Notes under the pieces: model-generated
What the model saw: only the letters and a program-made list of their open reading frames with translations
Database searches by the model: none
Told to the model about the DNA's origin: nothing
In this document: one piece after another, positions 41,766 through 47,268 of the stretch
Layout of the letters: every line of letters begins with the position of its first letter
How positions within the stretch are numbered: position 1 is the first letter of the stretch
Origin: Candidatus Vogelbacteria bacterium
GTDB taxonomy: Bacteria; Patescibacteriota; Minisyncoccia; Phycocordibacterales; JACOZG01
Direction: 5' to 3'
Assembly (NCBI GenBank): GCA_043807405.1
Contig: JAZDGA010000001.1
Coordinates: forward strand, 25,130-89,129
Length of the DNA: 64,000 nucleotides
Program-made: the position numbers and the translations under genes

Positions 41766-41845
41766 CCCGCCCTAACCCTCCCCGAAGGAGAGGGCGATTT
41801 GATTCCCCCCTTCCCCTTCGGGGAAGGGGTTTGGGGATGAGGTGA
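41766..41845. repeat. ORF-less (MITE-like) pair of type A GC-rich hairpins, the same repeats that bound the DUF559 cassette in leuS
   Basis: aaccctccccgaaggagagggc (hairpin at 41776-41794), a 9-nt spacer, then CCCCTTCCCC-ttc-GGGGAAGGGG (41807-41829) followed by gtttggggatgagg. Confidence 0.7.
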
Positions 41846-42556: not shown

Positions 42557-43588
42557 TCAGCTCACCGCGTATTTGCCTTCTTTGTTTTTCTTGAAGAATT
42601 TCGGATTCTTGAGATTGACGAGGACGGTGTTCGGTTTGACATAGCGCTCTTTGAGCACGCGGGTCATCACTTCCGGCTCGGTCAAAGGGCCGTGCTTCTT
42701 GATGATATTCTCAATTACTTCGCGAACAATGCCCGGCGTGTAACCCCATTCGGTAAGCGCATAGATGCCCCGACCGACAAGGACGAAGCGTTTATCTTTA
42801 ATCAGTTCGTTGTGGCAAGTCGCCGGATTGGCATGGCGATTGAATCGTGTATTAATCTCTTTCGCCACCTCGGTGAAATGCATCGGCGAACCTTGCTGAC
42901 GAAGCACGAGGAAGGCGTAATCGCGAACTCCGCGCACGCGCACCGACGGCGATTTGGCAAGACCCCATTCGCCAACCGGCGAGACACCTAAGTGTTTAGA
43001 GATCGAGAGCCAACGGCGGGCTTTTTCTTCTGAATCGGCTTCCGTTCCCGCTTCTTTAAGCGCCGTTAATAGGCGAAGGATCATTTCCCGTTCCGAAAGC
43101 AGATCGGTGTCCGATAAACTTTCCACCACCTGCTGAAGTGAAGCGTGGACGCGGTCGGCAAGAGTTTTATCCACCAACCAACGATGATGGAAGTGATCGT
43201 CTTCTTTGAGCCGAGTAAATTCATCGCCCAAAACGAGGAGGAAGTGAAGATTATTCTGCACCGCCAAATTTTTATCTAAATAATTCAAAAACTCGCGCTC
43301 GTGCGCAATTCCGCCGTATTCATTAAGCGCCGTTTCAAGCTCGGCGAAAATTGTTTCCGTCGCGTTGAAAGCCGGCGACTTGCGAATCGCCCGCAAAGAA
43401 AACTCTTCAATCTGCCGAACTCGTTCACGGGTAATACCATACCGTTTGCCAATCGCCTCGAGGGTTTCGCCCTCCCCTTCTTCAAGGCCATAGCGCCGAG
43501 ACATAATATCTTGGGCGCGGGTCGGCAAAATGGCGAGTAGGGCTTTGCCAACCTGTTTGGGCTTGAAACTAATGGTTTCTTTAATCAT
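42557..43588 (-). CDS. DNA-binding protein with an N-terminal sigma-70 region-4-like HTH and a C-terminal HARE-HTH-like domain
   Basis: ETLEAIGKRYGITRERVRQIEEFSLRAIRK (region 4.2 pattern). C-terminal YAFLVLRQQGSPMHFTEVAKEI...FVLVGRGIYALTEWGY. Confidence 0.6.
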   Translation of the reverse strand: MIKETISFKPKQVGKALLAILPTRAQDIMSRRYGLEEGEGETLEAIGKRYGITRERVRQIEEFSLRAIRKSPAFNATETIFAELETALNEYGGIAHEREFLNYLDKNLAVQNNLHFLLVLGDEFTRLKEDDHFHHRWLVDKTLADRVHASLQQVVESLSDTDLLSEREMILRLLTALKEAGTEADSEEKARRWLSISKHLGVSPVGEWGLAKSPSVRVRGVRDYAFLVLRQQGSPMHFTEVAKEINTRFNRHANPATCHNELIKDKRFVLVGRGIYALTEWGYTPGIVREVIENIIKKHGPLTEPEVMTRVLKERYVKPNTVLVNLKNPKFFKKNKEGKYAVS

Positions 43589-44052: not shown

Positions 44053-47000
44053 TTAGTTGTTGTCAATGACAAAATTTATTAGGCGGTTGGGGATAAAAAT
44101 TGTTTTCCGAACGGGCTTGTCCTTAAGCCACATTTTCACCTTCGGCCGACTGATTGCTAATTGCGTTAATTCCTTCTCGCCCAGACCATTCTCGGCTTCA
44201 AAAACATCTCGTGTCTTACCATTAATCTGAACCACGATTTTAACTTTTATCCGCCGGCTGGCGGATTGCACTTTAAGCTCTCTCGGCCACGGCGCAAGAT
44301 GAATTGATTTTTTCTCACCGAGATTTTGCCAGAGTTCATCAGTAATATGAGGAGCAAAAGGCGACAACAGTTTCAAAAATATTTTTATCGTAGCAACGGA
44401 AATGGTTGATTCTTTTTCCAAACTGTTTAGCAAAATCATCAAGCTAGAAATTGCCGTATTAAATTTCATCACTTCGATGTCATCACTGACTTTTTTAATT
44501 GTTTGATTGATTAGAGATTGGAGATTCTCTTCTTGAATTTTATTTTTAGTTTTTAGTTTTACCTGCCCGACGGCAAGGCGGGCACTTTGCACTATCTTCC
44601 AGACTCGTTCCAAGAAGCGACGCGAGCCAACCAGTCCGTCTTCATTCCATGCAATCGCCTGATCGAAAGGTCCCATAAACATCTCGTAAACCCGCAAAGT
44701 GTCGGCGCCGAAACGCCTGACAATGTCATCGGGATTCACCACATTACCCCGCGATTTCGACATTTTCTCGCCATCGTGAGCTAAAATAAAACCGTGGGAG
44801 GTCCGTTTCTGATAGGGTTCTTGGCCGGGGACCAACTTGAGATCGTTCAAAACTTTATGCCAGAAGCGGGAGTAGAGCAAGTGAAGCGTGGTGTGCTCCG
44901 TCCCGCCGTTGTACCAATCAACCGGTAACCACCGGTTTAACTTTTTTTGAATTTTAGAACTTGAAAATTGTTTGGAAATTGATAATTGGGAATTGAGATT
45001 TTCGCTTACGCAGTAAGCGACATAGTACCAGCTTGAGCCCGCCCAATTGGGCATCACATCCGTCTCGCGTCGCGCTGTACCACTGCATTTAGGACACTTA
45101 ACCTTGACCCATTTCTCCACCAAGGCTAATGGCGACTCGCCGTTATCCGTCGGCTGATATTTTTTAACGACCGGCAATTTAACCGGTAAATCTTTTTCCG
45201 GCACCGGCACCCACTCCTGACACTTCTGACAAAAAACTAACGGGATTGGCTCGCCCCAATATCGCTGGCGTGAAAAAACCCAATCGCGGAGTTTGTAAAT
45301 CGTTTGTTTTTCCCCATCAACCAATTTAATTATTTCATCTCGCACTTCTTCACTATTTTTTCCATCAAATTGATCGGAATTAGTAAGAACACCTATCCCT
45401 GTGTAAATCTGCCGATCAATTTTCATGCCATCCAAAATAAGGGGCATCTCACTGTGAGTCATTTTTTCAGAAGTTAATTCAGCAAGAGGTAACCAGACCA
45501 TTTCGTGAATATTTTTTTCTTCTTCAGAAATTTCTTCTTTTTTATCATCTTCGAGATCAAAGAGAATACTGTAGGTGTGAGCGATTCGATTAACATCCTT
45601 ATGCGCGGCAAAAAATTCTGACTGGGCCTCTCCTAAAATTTTTACCAACTTAACTTTTTGATAACCAGTCTCTTCCTTAATTTCTCTTATCGCCGCCAAG
45701 ACGGGATCTTCGCCTTCTTCTACCCCCCCCATCACGAAGGTTGTCCAAGGTTGTTTTTTCCATTTCAAACATAGAAATTTCCCCGTCTTGGGATTTCTCA
45801 CTACGGCAATTATCGCATTACGAAAAACGATTTTTTTACCAGGAACATGAGGATTCCTAGTATCAATCAATCGTGGTATTACGACATTCCGAATCGCCAA
45901 ATTGTGTTTCTGGGCGAAAGCGAGATCGCGTTCATCATGCGCGGGGACTCCCATAATCGCGCCGGTGCCGACATCCCCCATCACATATTCAGCTTCCCAA
46001 ATCGGAATTTTTTCCTGACTAACCGGATTGATCGCATACTCGCCCGTAAAATGATCGGCCGCACCATGCCGAGCGATGAAGGTTGCGCCGAAAATCGTCT
46101 CGGGACGGGTGGTGAAAACTTTAATTGAATCAACCCCTCCCAAACCCTCCCCGAAGGAGAGGGCTTTCAATGTCTCGTTAATTTCTGCCACAACTAACAT
46201 CCCATTCTCAATTACTTTTTCATTTTTGAACCTGATGATCTTAAAACCTTTCTGCTCAAGAAAGCTGGACCTCTCTTGGTCAGATTCTTTTTGGCAATCA
46301 TGAACATCGCCATCAACTTCAACTACCAACTTTTTTTCTAAACAAACAAAATCAACAATAAATTTTCCAATTATATGTTGCCGTCTAAAATGATAATTGG
46401 TTGCATCCCTTCTCAATAATTGCCACAAGAGATCTTCGGCCTTAGTCGAATTCTGCCGCATCTCTTTGGCTTTTTCCTGCAAGGCCTGCCAAGTTTGCGG
46501 ATCAGTGGTTTGGTATCCAAATTCCCCCTCTCCTTCGGGGAGGGGGCTGGGGGAGGGGTTGAAAATCTTGAATTCGATCTCCGCCCCCTCACTTCGCCCA
46601 ATCCAATTCCGCTGTTGCGACTTCACCGACTCGGGATAATTAACCAGATCAAGTTCGCGGTCGAGTCGGTCGGCATATTTGGTGATTGCGAGCATCCATT
46701 GCTCTTTATCTCGCATTTCCACCGCCGTCCCACACCGTTCGCATTTGCCATCGTTTACTTCCTCATTTGCCAAACCAATCTTACAACTCGGACACCAATT
46801 GATCGGCACTTTCGCTTTGTAAGCCAAACCTTTTTTGAAAAATTGCAAGAACATCCACTGCGTCCACTGATAATAATTCGGATCGGTGGTGTTTATTTCG
46901 CGCGACCAGTCGAAGGAGAAGCCGAGCGACTGGAGTTGCTTCCGGTAGCGAGTGGCATTTCTTTTAGTAATTAATTGGGGAGGCAAACCGGTTTTAATTG

Positions 47001-47268
47001 CGTAATTCTCGGTCGGCAAACCGAACGCGTCCCAACCCATCGGATAAAGCACCTCATAACCTTCCGCTCGCCGTTTCCGCGCCACCGCGTCCATCGCCGT
47101 ATAACCCCGGACATGCCCGACATGCACACCTTCGCCCGACGGATACGGAAATTCAACGAGAGCGTAATATTTTTTCTTCCGACTTCTTTCATTCATCCGA
47201 TGAAATTTCTTGGCTTCCCACACCTTCTGCCACTTCGCTTCAATCGCCTTAGGATTATATTTTCTCAT
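44053..47268 (-). CDS. leuS: leucyl-tRNA synthetase carrying two in-frame domain insertions (DUF559 endonuclease-like and Nudix)
   Basis: HIGH (HVGHVRGY), NWIGRSEGAEIEF, editing motifs TTRPET and GTGAIMGVPAHDERD, LRDWVFSRQRYWGEPIP and KMSKS. At 1071 aa it is larger than the ~800-880 aa I recall for bacterial LeuRS. Confidence 0.9.
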   Translation of the reverse strand: MRKYNPKAIEAKWQKVWEAKKFHRMNERSRKKKYYALVEFPYPSGEGVHVGHVRGYTAMDAVARKRRAEGYEVLYPMGWDAFGLPTENYAIKTGLPPQLITKRNATRYRKQLQSLGFSFDWSREINTTDPNYYQWTQWMFLQFFKKGLAYKAKVPINWCPSCKIGLANEEVNDGKCERCGTAVEMRDKEQWMLAITKYADRLDRELDLVNYPESVKSQQRNWIGRSEGAEIEFKIFNPSPSPLPEGEGEFGYQTTDPQTWQALQEKAKEMRQNSTKAEDLLWQLLRRDATNYHFRRQHIIGKFIVDFVCLEKKLVVEVDGDVHDCQKESDQERSSFLEQKGFKIIRFKNEKVIENGMLVVAEINETLKALSFGEGLGGVDSIKVFTTRPETIFGATFIARHGAADHFTGEYAINPVSQEKIPIWEAEYVMGDVGTGAIMGVPAHDERDLAFAQKHNLAIRNVVIPRLIDTRNPHVPGKKIVFRNAIIAVVRNPKTGKFLCLKWKKQPWTTFVMGGVEEGEDPVLAAIREIKEETGYQKVKLVKILGEAQSEFFAAHKDVNRIAHTYSILFDLEDDKKEEISEEEKNIHEMVWLPLAELTSEKMTHSEMPLILDGMKIDRQIYTGIGVLTNSDQFDGKNSEEVRDEIIKLVDGEKQTIYKLRDWVFSRQRYWGEPIPLVFCQKCQEWVPVPEKDLPVKLPVVKKYQPTDNGESPLALVEKWVKVKCPKCSGTARRETDVMPNWAGSSWYYVAYCVSENLNSQLSISKQFSSSKIQKKLNRWLPVDWYNGGTEHTTLHLLYSRFWHKVLNDLKLVPGQEPYQKRTSHGFILAHDGEKMSKSRGNVVNPDDIVRRFGADTLRVYEMFMGPFDQAIAWNEDGLVGSRRFLERVWKIVQSARLAVGQVKLKTKNKIQEENLQSLINQTIKKVSDDIEVMKFNTAISSLMILLNSLEKESTISVATIKIFLKLLSPFAPHITDELWQNLGEKKSIHLAPWPRELKVQSASRRIKVKIVVQINGKTRDVFEAENGLGEKELTQLAISRPKVKMWLKDKPVRKTIFIPNRLINFVIDNN
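45394..45873 (-). other. Nudix hydrolase domain inserted in the CP1 editing domain of LeuRS (aa ~466-625)
   Basis: Perfect Nudix box GGVEEGEDPVLAAIREIKEETGY (aa 514-536, nt 45661-45729), between IRNVVIP and VLTNSDQFDG. Confidence 0.8.
46135..46560 (-). mobile_element. DUF559 (Vsr-like endonuclease) cassette with hairpin terminal inverted repeats, inserted in frame in leuS (aa ~237-378)
   Basis: LLWQLLRRDATNYHFRRQHIIGKFIVDFVCLEKKLVVEVDGDVH...GFKIIRFKNEKV. Bounded by inverted GC-rich repeats at 46134-46164 and 46524-46558. Confidence 0.75.

Follow-up and report, generated by a model that had tools for sequence, protein, structure and literature searches.

A complete Nudix domain inserted in the CP1 editing domain of a bacterial-type leucyl-tRNA synthetase of Patescibacteria

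The 64-kb stretch of DNA analysed here (the window) encodes an otherwise intact bacterial-type leucyl-tRNA synthetase (LeuRS) of an ultra-small bacterium of the Patescibacteria (CPR), which carries a complete and in-frame Nudix-fold domain inside a loop of its CP1 editing domain (Table 1). No other Nudix box occurs in the window. The presence of such a domain within CP1 had been proposed in a first-pass annotation made from the sequence, together with a PF00293 search, a structure prediction and a survey of related LeuRSs, and is borne out by the HMM match, the alignment to the LeuRS structure 1h3n, AlphaFold2 modelling with Foldseek, and recurrence in more than 100 assemblies. The segment then delimited, 45394–45873, corresponds to aa 466–625, and all the motifs quoted lie where they had been placed, with IRNVVIP at aa 459–465, VLTNSDQFDG at aa 627–636 and the Nudix box GGVEEGEDPVLAAIREIKEETGY at aa 514–536.

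Table 1 Features of the LeuRS gene and of its two inserted domains (positions in the window).
Feature	Position	Strand	Remarks
leuS CDS	44053..47268	minus	1071-aa bacterial-type LeuRS with two inserted domains; ORF and TIGR00396
Class I signature HIGH (HVGH, aa 49–52)	47113..47124	minus	H49, G51 and H52 invariant among 100 homologues
Second CP1 insert, DUF559 (Vsr-like endonuclease fold), aa 236–380, 145 aa	46129..46563	minus	PF04480 E=1.5e-33; replaces Tth 237–241
Editing-site threonine-rich motif TTRPET, aa 386–391	46096..46113	minus	aligned with Tth TTRPDT
Editing-site motif GTGAIMGVPAHDERD, aa 434–448	45925..45969	minus	counterpart in Tth, GTGAIMAVPAHDQRD
Nudix insert, aa 464–620, in the CP1 editing-domain loop past GTG..HDERD	45409..45879	minus	alignment to 1h3n
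Pfam NUDIX PF00293 match, aa 482–604	45457..45825	minus	E=5.3e-19, 69 bits
Nudix box GX5EX7REUXEEXGU, aa 514–536	45661..45729	minus	motif position
Subfamily signature FFAAHKDVNR, aa 552–561	45586..45615	minus	X-loop region, 16–25 residues past the Nudix box
Class I signature KMSKS, aa 835–839	44752..44766	minus	K835, S837 and K838 invariant among 100 homologues

The host protein scores 872 bits against the bacterial leucine–tRNA ligase model TIGR00396 (leuS_bact; cutoff, 548.4), its top PDB matches are LeuRS structures, and its editing domain is recognized by PF13603 (E=1.6e-36). Among 100 LeuRS homologues, T386, T387, R388 and T391 of the threonine-rich motif are at least 90% conserved, and D445 and D448 of the second editing motif are invariant. 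The synthetic and editing motifs are intact despite the Nudix insert, as the first-pass annotation had stated for TTRPET and GTGAIMGVPAHDERD, both conserved across the family.

The point of insertion is defined by two blocks that align to Thermus thermophilus LeuRS (Tth, 1h3n), query residues 406–463 to Tth 305–362 and 621–844 to Tth 376–593, so that the 157 residues of the insert replace only 13 (Tth 363–375). The earlier claim that this region is longer than in Thermus and Escherichia coli LeuRS stands, but the 25–35 residues given for the reference enzymes do not, the loop having 13 unaligned residues in Tth and about 17 between the motifs; since the real loop is shorter than stated, the case for an insertion is strengthened. 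The match to the Nudix superfamily model is well above the Pfam gathering cutoff (21.1 bits) and covers profile positions 2–124 of 134, and the isolated segment gives E=2.3e-20. Every residue of the box is present in the window protein (G514-x5-E520-x7-R528-E529-I-x-E532-E533-x-G535-Y536). In the full-length AlphaFold2 model the Nudix region has a pLDDT of 92–97, and the model of the domain by itself (mean pLDDT 93.7) has the α/β/α sandwich with the Nudix box on a loop–helix–loop, the helix 522–534 bearing REIKEE; Foldseek matches it with probability 1.0 to many Nudix structures, the top one being 2azw (TMq 0.73).

A chimeric assembly or mis-joined contig, or a segment removed from the mRNA or the protein, might be suspected from the drop in base composition over the Nudix insert (GC 0.391 and GC3 0.350, against 0.464 and 0.511 in the LeuRS body) and from the public gene call of this locus, which is shortened to only 809 aa. 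However, the leuS frame runs without interruption across 44053–47268, the same junction and length recur in over 100 sequences assembled independently (NCBI, JGI, ENA and Logan), the shortened call starts within the DUF559 insert and not the Nudix insert, and no intein or intron signature is present; an artefact is effectively refuted, and its probability is negligible. An intein or other self-splicing insert was rejected: Pfam matches no Hint or intein domain, the junctions (VVIP/RLID and IYTGI/GVLT) have the wrong residues for an intein, which would start with Cys or Ser and end in His-Asn before a Cys, Ser or Thr, and the Nudix region is modelled as a packed folded domain in the full-length protein. 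Repeats resembling transposon ends were weak at the borders of the Nudix segment and at chance level only (I5, 72% complementarity; I10, 11 nt).

Of the 120 top-scoring LeuRS homologues, a list skewed towards Nudix-bearing sequences, 107 have the insert at the same site, and in most of them it is 157–158 aa long; those with an organism name are all CPR. Embedding at the same junction occurs, among the matches listed, in genomes labelled Saccharibacteria, Parcubacteria and Gracilibacteria and in two 'Bacilli/Bacillales' MAGs. Some LeuRSs hold the same subfamily at a second CP1 site as well, giving two to three copies per protein. LeuRS–Nudix sequences are common in public databases, where they are named generically. 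The family came to light when 1.84 billion representatives were searched exhaustively with the profile, which gave 136 clusters at E≤1e-30; a word-indexed search with the 160-aa segment had returned only 14 proteins. Of the best 149 clusters, 104 have a LeuRS sequence and 30 are free-standing genes of about 160 aa.

Across 113 domain copies, whose mean identity is 45%, E529, E533 and G535 are identical in all, G514 is kept in 112, E532 in 107, R528 in 101, and E520 in 101 with Gln in 11 more. Outside the box, R483, K557, N560, R561 and W592 are classed as invariant (K557 in 111 copies, N560 in 112 and R561 in 113), and positions 552 (Phe in 72, Tyr in 40, Trp in one) and 553 (Phe in 70, Tyr in 40) are aromatic in nearly all. 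Judged from this alignment, the catalytic Nudix residues are shown to be under strong purifying selection. The pyrophosphatase embedded in LeuRS is probably active. The signature [FY][FY]AAHKxxNR is common to the LeuRS-embedded, the free-standing and the prolyl-tRNA synthetase (ProRS)-embedded members described below and marks the compact subfamily to which the domain belongs.

In two LeuRS backbones whose identity outside the inserts is about 94%, the Nudix domains are only 34% identical (BLASTP), and close relatives (P0002, with 82% body identity, P0056 and P0044) are devoid of the domain, which is therefore dispensable for LeuRS function. The identities of body and Nudix domain are uncorrelated (r=0.01), but the homologues had been selected for their total score against the query, a choice that may bias this value, and the claim of recombination is therefore based on the individual BLASTP pairs. 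As far as such comparisons tell, the Nudix cassette is often exchanged and lost over short timescales; it would be an exchangeable module, swapped among LeuRS genes through homologous recombination and frequently deleted. A role in defence, suggested by the cassette swapping, was rejected, as PADLOC gives only a 21-bit match (candidate family PDC-S07). The DUF559 insert, which lies in the same editing domain and was not mentioned in the first-pass annotation, has ends formed by perfect 19-nt terminal inverted repeats (46145–46163 and 46526–46544) with extensions, and by these features it looks like a mobile element. In other homologues the same or nearby CP1 sites hold α/β-hydrolase, HAD, ANT-like or DUF559 domains, a pattern as expected from a merely permissive loop.

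It is very unlikely that the Nudix domain has no hydrolase activity and is kept by recombination and drift, whether as a passenger (neutral or selfish) or as a module with a structural or regulatory role but no catalysis. Its patchy presence among close relatives, its swapping between near-identical backbones, its atypical base composition, the neighbouring insert with terminal inverted repeats, and the loss of the G-x5-E glutamate from three of the five ProRS-embedded copies would all be in keeping with such a passenger. They are outweighed, in our opinion, by the residues retained in 113 of 113 copies at so low a mean identity, by the invariant residues outside the box, by the confidently predicted fold, by borders free of inverted repeats, of intein blocks and of any Hint domain, and by the retention of free-standing members as genes.

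The same subfamily is inserted in a class II synthetase, ProRS, in five clusters; their nearest relatives carry the names Nanoarchaeota or Woesearchaeota, so that the hosts are probably DPANN archaea. Free-standing members were also found next to aminoacyl-tRNA synthetase (aaRS) genes: 73 bp upstream of thrS, with a second such member 48 bp upstream; 2 bp upstream of a Nudix-less leuS and, equally, 2 bp upstream of a Nudix-bearing leuS; and 12 bp downstream of argS, ahead of ileS. Four of 11 free-standing contexts have such a neighbour (thrS, leuS or argS/ileS) and the other seven have none; for the four of 11, the binomial probability is about 2e-3 if an aaRS gene is assumed to adjoin about 5.5% of genes. 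Two Saccharibacteria loci with the order nusB-nudix-rnc near leuS (L081 and L061) were left uncounted because the subfamily signature is absent from their Nudix genes on alignment. Since the subfamily occurs repeatedly inside or beside aaRS genes, the Nudix and the synthetase are probably functionally linked, and gene context thus favours a real tie to aaRS function.

Our best guess for the substrate, which we offer tentatively and with low confidence, is a dinucleoside polyphosphate of the Ap4A type, with the enzyme working alongside aminoacylation. Many aaRSs make Ap4A-type compounds when ATP attacks the enzyme-bound aminoacyl-adenylate. In the mechanism envisaged, the domain would be an active Mg2+-dependent pyrophosphohydrolase that cleaves these products to ATP and AMP (or ADP and AMP) as aminoacylation proceeds, recycling scarce adenine nucleotides in a salvage-dependent organism; with both activities on one LeuRS polypeptide, or encoded in one operon, the dosage of the hydrolase would follow that of the synthetase. 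The polyphosphate chain would be bound by the invariant basic residues R483, K504, K557 and R561, and the second nucleobase would stack against the invariant aromatic pair at +16/+17 past the box. According to Dunn et al. (1999), as given in a later review (PMC5389931), a Tyr in the X-loop about 16–18 residues past the box marks the ApnA hydrolases; both positions, +16 and +17, are Phe in the window protein, and in the family they are aromatic, with Tyr in only part. The Foldseek neighbours include ApnA hydrolases (Rv2985, human NUDT2, Aquifex aq_158, Thermus Ndx1 and DR1025) as well as Msm MutT1, although the ApnA matches are indistinguishable from those to other small Nudix enzymes, and the phmmer and profile matches to Ap4A hydrolases are weak (lupin 1f3y, E=1e-4 to 9e-7; aq_158, E=1e-3 to 2e-5). 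ArgRS, one of the neighbours, forms no adenylate in the absence of tRNA and therefore should not make Ap4A. Of the functional idea in the first-pass annotation, offered there as speculative, the Ap4A part remains plausible and is indirectly supported by the repeated association of the subfamily with aaRS genes. Its other part, the clearing of mis-activated adenylates, is chemically unlikely, because an aminoacyl-adenylate is an acyl-phosphate, whereas the linkage split by Nudix enzymes is a pyrophosphate.

The curated substrate families of NCBIfam give no assignment that reaches threshold. RppH is the top curated family for every member tested, always below its cutoff: against PRK00714 the window domain scores 28.5 bits and four free-standing members 23–40, the cutoffs being 116–118. 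An ADP-ribose pyrophosphatase would be recognized by a Pro in the X-loop about 16 residues past the box (PMC5389931), and this candidate was rejected as there is no Pro at aa 550–555 (SEFFAA); the Bacillus methanolicus ADP-ribose pyrophosphatase is the top single-sequence PDB match (E=1.5e-5), over the N-terminal half only.

Action on an RNA 5' end is unlikely, yet has several points in its favour. The domain would then be an RppH-like or decapping pyrophosphohydrolase that removes a 5'-triphosphate, or an Np(n)N- or NAD-type cap, from an RNA that the synthetase presents, the tRNA 5' end being the most obvious candidate; this end adjoins the CCA end handled by CP1. Besides RppH (PRK00714 variants) as the nearest curated family, with a match spanning nearly the whole model in member P0165 (39.8 bits), YtkD, an RNA deprotection pyrophosphohydrolase, is also matched; both hosts, LeuRS with its CP1 domain and ProRS, are tRNA binders; and five invariant basic residues would fit a polyphosphate or an RNA backbone. 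Among PDB sequences, the family profile finds its best match in AvrM14 (E=2.5e-9, in an alignment that includes its K-D-x-x-R signature), an effector that decaps mRNA (PMC12425495); that it is no Ap4A hydrolase speaks against the Ap4A-type substrate. Further neighbours are oomycete decapping effectors, Dcp2, NUDT12, NUDT16-like proteins and RppH. Against this, all these matches are far under the family cutoffs, and free-standing members occur without a tRNA-binding partner. Moreover, mature bacterial tRNAs bear a 5'-monophosphate after RNase P processing, and a tRNA substrate would therefore require unusual biology.

An enzyme with no mechanistic tie to leucylation is also improbable. Such a domain would clean up oxidised or non-canonical (d)NTPs in the manner of MutT, or be a Nudix enzyme of some other general kind; it would be accommodated by two CP1 loops that tolerate inserts, an essential and steadily expressed gene being a safe carrier in a tiny genome. 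The variety of other domains at the CP1 sites and the loss of the Nudix domain from close LeuRS relatives are in agreement with this, as are the top structural neighbours, which include Msm MutT1 along with further NTP pyrophosphohydrolases. So is the setting of several members: on three contigs fpg/mutM is followed 4 bp downstream by free-standing P0152, in the vicinity of ruvA and polA, a location that points to a MutT-like role and away from Ap4A; P0125 has fpg 3 kb upstream; a uracil-DNA glycosylase gene is near P0226; and P0175 shares its gene block with thymidylate kinase, dUTPase and a further Nudix. However, the MutT equivalog (NF008044) gives only 19.3 bits against a cutoff of 148, and a mere hitch-hiker would leave unexplained the independent insertion in class I and class II aaRSs in two domains of life, the use of two CP1 sites, and the adjacency of free-standing members to four different aaRS genes. 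With an Ap4A-type substrate still preferred, a broader proposal, possible but doubtful, is that CPR and DPANN share a dedicated aaRS-associated Nudix family, spread as a recombining cassette, which, once inserted in the LeuRS editing domain or in ProRS, would provide a second and unrelated hydrolytic site acting in cis on what the synthetase makes or holds, either Ap4A-type by-products or a polyphosphate or cap at the 5' end of its bound tRNA.

The aaRSs are among the most conserved enzymes, with an architecture that in bacteria is considered all but fixed. In this LeuRS the proofreading domain houses a whole second enzyme, apparently retained over a large part of Patescibacteria. No description of this architecture was found in full-text literature searches, consistent with the remark in the first-pass annotation that it was not one known to have been described, and neither 'tRNA' nor 'synthetase' occurs in the 2017 review of the whole Nudix clan (PMC5389931). 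Should the domain degrade dinucleotides made by aaRSs or process tRNA 5' ends, it would show how a minimal metabolism handles the nucleotide by-products of translation, and would offer a direct experimental handle in a single recombinant protein, wild type compared with a Nudix-box mutant, which bears on the long debate over whether synthetase-made Ap4A is a signal or waste. If action in cis is the true reading, an unrecognised layer of clean-up or quality control would be acting on aminoacylation in the smallest known cells; if the domain is only a hitch-hiker, it would still be a clear case of domain accretion in reduced genomes, although of less mechanistic interest. Finally, the cassette exchange and the DUF559 element mark the two CP1 loops as hot spots of in-frame domain gain, which is useful for understanding the origins of multidomain enzymes and for LeuRS engineering.

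The window LeuRS is worth comparing with known systems. It shares with the bacterial LeuRSs of T. thermophilus (1h3n/2bte) and E. coli (4aq7/4arc) the family, the domain order, HIGH, KMSKS, the threonine-rich motif and GTG..HD.RD, but contains 157 (Nudix) and 145 (DUF559) extra residues, at Tth 363–375 and 237–241, respectively, which T. thermophilus LeuRS does not have, and has neither Tth 262–304 of the editing domain nor any of the leucine-specific domain. With the small monomeric Nudix enzymes (NUDT2, aq_158, Ndx1, Rv2985 and E. coli RppH), the inserted domain has in common the fold, the box, a size of about 150 aa and an X-loop aromatic residue 16–17 past the box; however, it is only 15–26% identical to the ApnA/RppH/MutT1 group, falls below all curated family thresholds, has its own signature and is embedded in another enzyme. 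AvrM14-A/B of flax rust (8dp8/8dp9), matched over about 105 residues, aligns its K-D-x-x-R motif with K557-x2-N-R561; it is a secreted, free-standing eukaryotic effector of about 25% identity.

A second catalytic domain in a nucleotide-using polypeptide is likewise found in NadM-Nudix (NMN adenylyltransferase/ADP-ribose pyrophosphatase) and in the GNAT-containing IleRS (NF040702), whose NCBIfam models match the window LeuRS weakly, but the partners and the Nudix subfamily differ, and NadM-Nudix is an end-to-end fusion with no insertion in an editing-domain loop. The domains appended to eukaryotic aaRSs (GST-like, WHEP, EMAPII and UNE) are also additions beyond the catalytic core, mostly terminal, non-catalytic interaction modules. 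In clear contrast, the Nudix domain of LeuRS is internal, apparently catalytic, bacterial, and exchanged or lost on short timescales.

The single long open reading frame encoding the 1071-residue protein specifies a bacterial-type leucyl-tRNA synthetase (LeuRS), which scores 872 bits with TIGR00396 against a cutoff of 548 and has LeuRS structures as its top PDB matches both by sequence and by predicted fold; its synthetic and editing signatures are invariant or near-invariant among 100 LeuRS homologues. Residues 482-604 hit the Pfam NUDIX model at E=5e-19 (69 bits versus a cutoff of 21), and in the alignment to Thermus thermophilus LeuRS (Tth), where residues 406-463 correspond to Tth 305-362 and residues 621-844 to Tth 376-593, the Nudix site holds 157 residues versus 13 in Thermus. 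The first-pass annotation, made from the sequence alone, had placed a Nudix domain in the CP1 editing domain at aa 466-625 between intact editing motifs; the alignment and the HMM search that it had proposed bear this out, every motif it quoted lies where it had been located, and the flanking editing motifs are indeed preserved. Only the ~25-35 residues that it gave for Thermus and E. coli LeuRS at this site were too generous to the null expectation, and the case for an insertion is stronger with the 13 residues actually present in Thermus.

Positions and contexts of the features discussed (aa, residues of the window LeuRS; L-numbers, loci of relatives)
Feature	Position	Strand	Observation
LeuRS open reading frame	window 44053-47268	-	1071 aa
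Nudix insert	aa 464-620
DUF559 endonuclease-fold insert, 145 aa	aa 236-380, window 46129-46563	-	Pfam E=1.5e-33; Thermus has 5 residues there
Terminal inverted repeats of DUF559 insert	window 46130-46163 / 46526-46562		~34 nt, perfect 19-nt core
Synthetic signatures	HVGH aa 49-52, KMSKS aa 835-839		present
Editing signatures	TTRPET, GTGAIMGVPAHDERD		present
Start of public gene call P0001	aa 263, window 46480-46560		inside DUF559 insert
Both repeat arms without cargo	window 41766-41836		intergenic, arms ~14 nt apart
Gene downstream of leuS	window 42557-43588	-
Free-standing member near thrS	73 bp upstream of thrS		second cluster 48 bp upstream
Free-standing member near leuS	2 bp upstream of insert-less leuS		"split" version of fusion
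Free-standing member near leuS	2 bp upstream of insert-bearing leuS
Free-standing member near argS	12 bp downstream of argS		just upstream of ileS
Free-standing member near fpg/mutM	L089 3016-4513		4 bp downstream of fpg/mutM; also L090, L091
Editing-domain piece plus Nudix	L019 3653-4510		complete ORF, Clostridiales MAG
ProRS with Nudix domain	L088 5593-7524
IleRS with histidine-phosphatase domain	L096 5094-8498		His_Phos_1

The reading frame is unbroken across the Nudix insert. A full-length AlphaFold2 model based on a 100-sequence alignment has a mean pLDDT of 88.6, with values of 92-97 over the Nudix segment and low values only at the linkers of the DUF559 insert; modeled by itself, the domain reaches a pLDDT of 93.7 and retrieves many solved Nudix structures in Foldseek at probability 1.0, the top one being E. 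faecalis 2azw (TMq 0.73), so that the structure prediction suggested earlier likewise returned a Nudix fold. Among the 120 best LeuRS matches in a 5.8-billion-protein collection, all named ones of which are CPR/Patescibacteria, phmmer detected the domain in 107 (Nudix only, 83; Nudix and DUF559, 24), the others having DUF559 only (7) or neither (6); the insert is 157-158 aa long in most of them and the junction is always identical. When GTDB species genomes were scanned by pattern, the domain turned up at this LeuRS junction in genomes labeled Saccharibacteria, Parcubacteria, and Gracilibacteria, and also in two MAGs carrying Bacillales/Bacilli labels. Because the frame is unbroken and the insertion recurs at the same junction in many lineages, a chimeric assembly, the alternative that the first-pass annotation had itself raised, is excluded as its source; around the Nudix segment, no intein, intron, or transposon signatures were found. 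We regard the presence of a Nudix domain within the LeuRS editing domain as secure.

The mean pairwise identity is 45% for 113 copies of the Nudix domain and 66% for the LeuRS body, that is, LeuRS outside the inserts. Within the Nudix box, G514 is retained in 112 copies, E520 in 101 (with Q in 11 others), R528 in 101, E532 in 107, and E529, E533, and G535 in all 113; equally fixed outside the box are R483, W503, K504, W508, K557, N560, R561, E584, and W592, and almost all copies have an aromatic residue (F, Y, or W) at both aa 552 and aa 553. Near-fixation of these residues despite 45% identity is what purifying selection on an enzyme produces, unlike the decay of a passenger, and the domain is quite likely to be catalytically competent.

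Close relatives show rapid gain, exchange, and loss of the Nudix domain among LeuRS genes. The closest relative of the window LeuRS, P0002 (82% body identity), has the DUF559 insert and no Nudix domain; since its gap also takes out the adjoining native G-x-L-x-NS-x-F-x-G segment, the absence is a secondary deletion. The homologues P0006 and P0056, 88% identical, differ in the DUF559 insert, and P0005 and P0007, 83% identical, carry different inserts. In P0014 and P0038, the aligned bodies are 94% identical, whereas the Nudix domains (aa ~505-700) share only 34%; on both sides of the cassette the sequences match almost residue for residue, and the divergent tract runs on into flanking LeuRS residues, as expected if the donor was another Nudix-bearing leuS, by homologous recombination. 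In the window gene, the Nudix insert has a GC3 of 0.35 versus 0.51 for the body, below every equal-length body window. The nearest relatives of its Nudix domain reside in LeuRS bodies only ~64% identical, and the Nudix-bearing P0003 and P0005, with bodies 74% identical to the window LeuRS, have Nudix domains only 43-49% identical. As the same or nearby positions are occupied by alpha/beta-hydrolase, HAD, or ANT-like (PF10706) domains in other homologues, the two CP1 loops are hot spots of in-frame domain acquisition in general.

The DUF559 insert looks like a mobile element residing in frame within an essential gene. Both of its repeat arms are GC hairpins, each with a TTCG loop, and they translate to the peptides PSPLPEGEGE and LSFGEGLGG; the window contains 4 copies of the repeat 19-mer versus 0 expected. 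The cargo-less pair of arms in an intergenic region is a MITE-like relative. At a third site (aa ~826-850, before DWYNGG), P0014 and P0038 have a short PLSFGEGEGGV-type sequence resembling the right-hand end of the DUF559 insert, perhaps a footprint left by excision. In the public gene call, the window LeuRS is P0001 (809 aa), which omits the N-terminal 262 aa including HIGH and starts just downstream of AAGGAG in the left repeat arm; the gene caller was probably misled into this truncation by the Shine-Dalgarno-like repeat. Downstream of leuS lies a gene whose product resembles, by eye, a sigma-70 region-4/HARE-HTH protein, and at the locus of the homologue P0161 a gene with these Pfam domains follows leuS; the neighborhood may be conserved between the two.

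A profile of the domain and its free-standing relatives, searched against 1.84 billion representative proteins, outlined a compact family of 136 clusters with a threshold of E<=1e-30, or 399 with E<=1e-10. The best 149 representatives comprise 104 with LeuRS sequence, 30 free-standing proteins (~155-230 aa), and 15 of other architectures, and the signature [FY][FY]AAHKxxNR and other invariant residues are common to embedded and free-standing members. By Pfam, the last group includes tandem Nudix proteins, ~280-aa proteins in which the Nudix domain is joined to a C-terminal fragment of a LeuRS editing domain, and P0232. In free-standing proteins of ~215-295 aa (the ORF at L019 and P0211, P0235, P0204, P0151, P0191, and P0134), some in Clostridia-labeled MAGs, the Nudix domain is flanked by a LeuRS remnant, namely a degenerate C-terminal editing-domain piece and/or a YTG.G flank; they look like excised fragments of Nudix-bearing leuS surviving as genes. 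Alpha/beta-hydrolase, HAD, or ANT-like domains and double or triple sets of Nudix are seen in other Patescibacteria LeuRSs (P0013, P0036, P0012, P0019, P0098, and P0107), placed either at these CP1 sites or immediately past the editing domain, with protein lengths of up to 1722 aa. In P0232, a class II prolyl-tRNA synthetase (ProRS), the inserted Nudix domain follows the anticodon-binding domain and precedes the C-terminal zinc domain. Such proteins form five clusters (P0232 and P0284-P0287) and probably belong to DPANN archaea, since the Nudix-less sequences nearest to them carry Nanoarchaeota or Woesearchaeota annotations; one of the five retains a canonical Nudix box, and three have lost the G-x5-E glutamate.

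One subfamily has been inserted independently in class I and class II synthetases in two domains of life, and it also occupies the second CP1 site of LeuRS, giving two or three copies (P0013, P0029, and the 1722-aa P0036). Free-standing members have synthetase neighbors in 4 of 11 informative contexts and no synthetase gene beside them in the other 7; assuming that ~5.5% of genes have a synthetase gene as neighbor gives a binomial probability of ~2e-3, or ~1.5e-2 with the two leuS cases merged. These associations tip the balance slightly toward a functional tie of the Nudix domain to aminoacylation. The domain might instead perform MutT-like sanitising or be a hitch-hiker without a mechanistic link to the synthetase, a reading that we rank third and consider improbable; its main argument is the permissiveness of the CP1 loops as general hot spots of domain gain, and the member adjoining fpg/mutM, in one of the 7 contexts lacking a synthetase gene, lies in a DNA-repair neighborhood with ruvA and polA nearby, which argues that some members, at least, act in a MutT-like manner. 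At L096, an isoleucyl-tRNA synthetase (IleRS) with an inserted histidine-phosphatase domain adjoins a free-standing subfamily member and ArgRS, with thymidylate kinase, dUTPase, and another Nudix upstream.

Curated NCBIfam models were passed neither by the window domain nor by four free-standing members; their top family is RppH, at 23-40 bits versus cutoffs of 116-118, and the MutT model gives 19 bits versus 148. Against solved structures, the family profile best matches AvrM14 (E=2.5e-9), an mRNA-decapping effector (PMC12425495), with NudB and lupin Ap4A hydrolase next, and the Foldseek neighbors span classes, including the ApnA hydrolases Rv2985, NUDT2, aq_158, Ndx1, and DR1025 as well as MutT1, RppH, decapping effectors, and NudB. 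The invariant aromatic pair 16-17 residues past the Nudix box is located in the X-loop, which touches the substrate X moiety and in which Tyr marks ApnA hydrolases (PMC5389931). Neither the Pro characteristic of ADP-ribose pyrophosphatases nor the SQPWPFPQS motif of NADH diphosphatases (PMC5389931) is present in the window Nudix domain. Only one kind of nucleoside polyphosphate is known to be produced by adenylate-forming synthetases, namely Ap4A-type dinucleoside polyphosphates; as the fold neighbors and the aromatic X-loop fit too, we tentatively rank these compounds, which the first pass had also suggested, as the foremost of several possible substrates. RppH-like action on RNA 5' ends, placed second and rather doubtful, would suit both the closest curated families and hosts that bind tRNA, but it requires an unusual substrate. 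The other earlier suggestion, clearance of mis-activated aminoacyl-adenylates by the Nudix domain, is unlikely, because these are acyl-phosphates while Nudix enzymes cleave pyrophosphate linkages.

The impression at first pass that this architecture had not been described agrees with full-text literature searches and a comprehensive Nudix-clan review (PMC5389931), in which no description of a Nudix domain in LeuRS CP1 was found; public databases contain many Nudix-bearing LeuRS sequences, labeled generically, e.g., "class I tRNA ligase family protein". Compared with T. thermophilus LeuRS, the window LeuRS lacks Tth 262-304, ~43 residues of the editing domain (aa 400-406 region) also missing in 36% of the homologues, and the leucine-specific domain (aa 823-834 region), which is absent from all 100 aligned homologues as well; the enzyme is pared down in some places and enlarged by whole domains in others. 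Altogether, each part is of a known kind, bacterial LeuRS on the one hand and Nudix hydrolase on the other; what appears to be new is their combination, a predicted catalytic Nudix domain inside CP1 whose subfamily is also found within ProRS and beside other synthetase genes.
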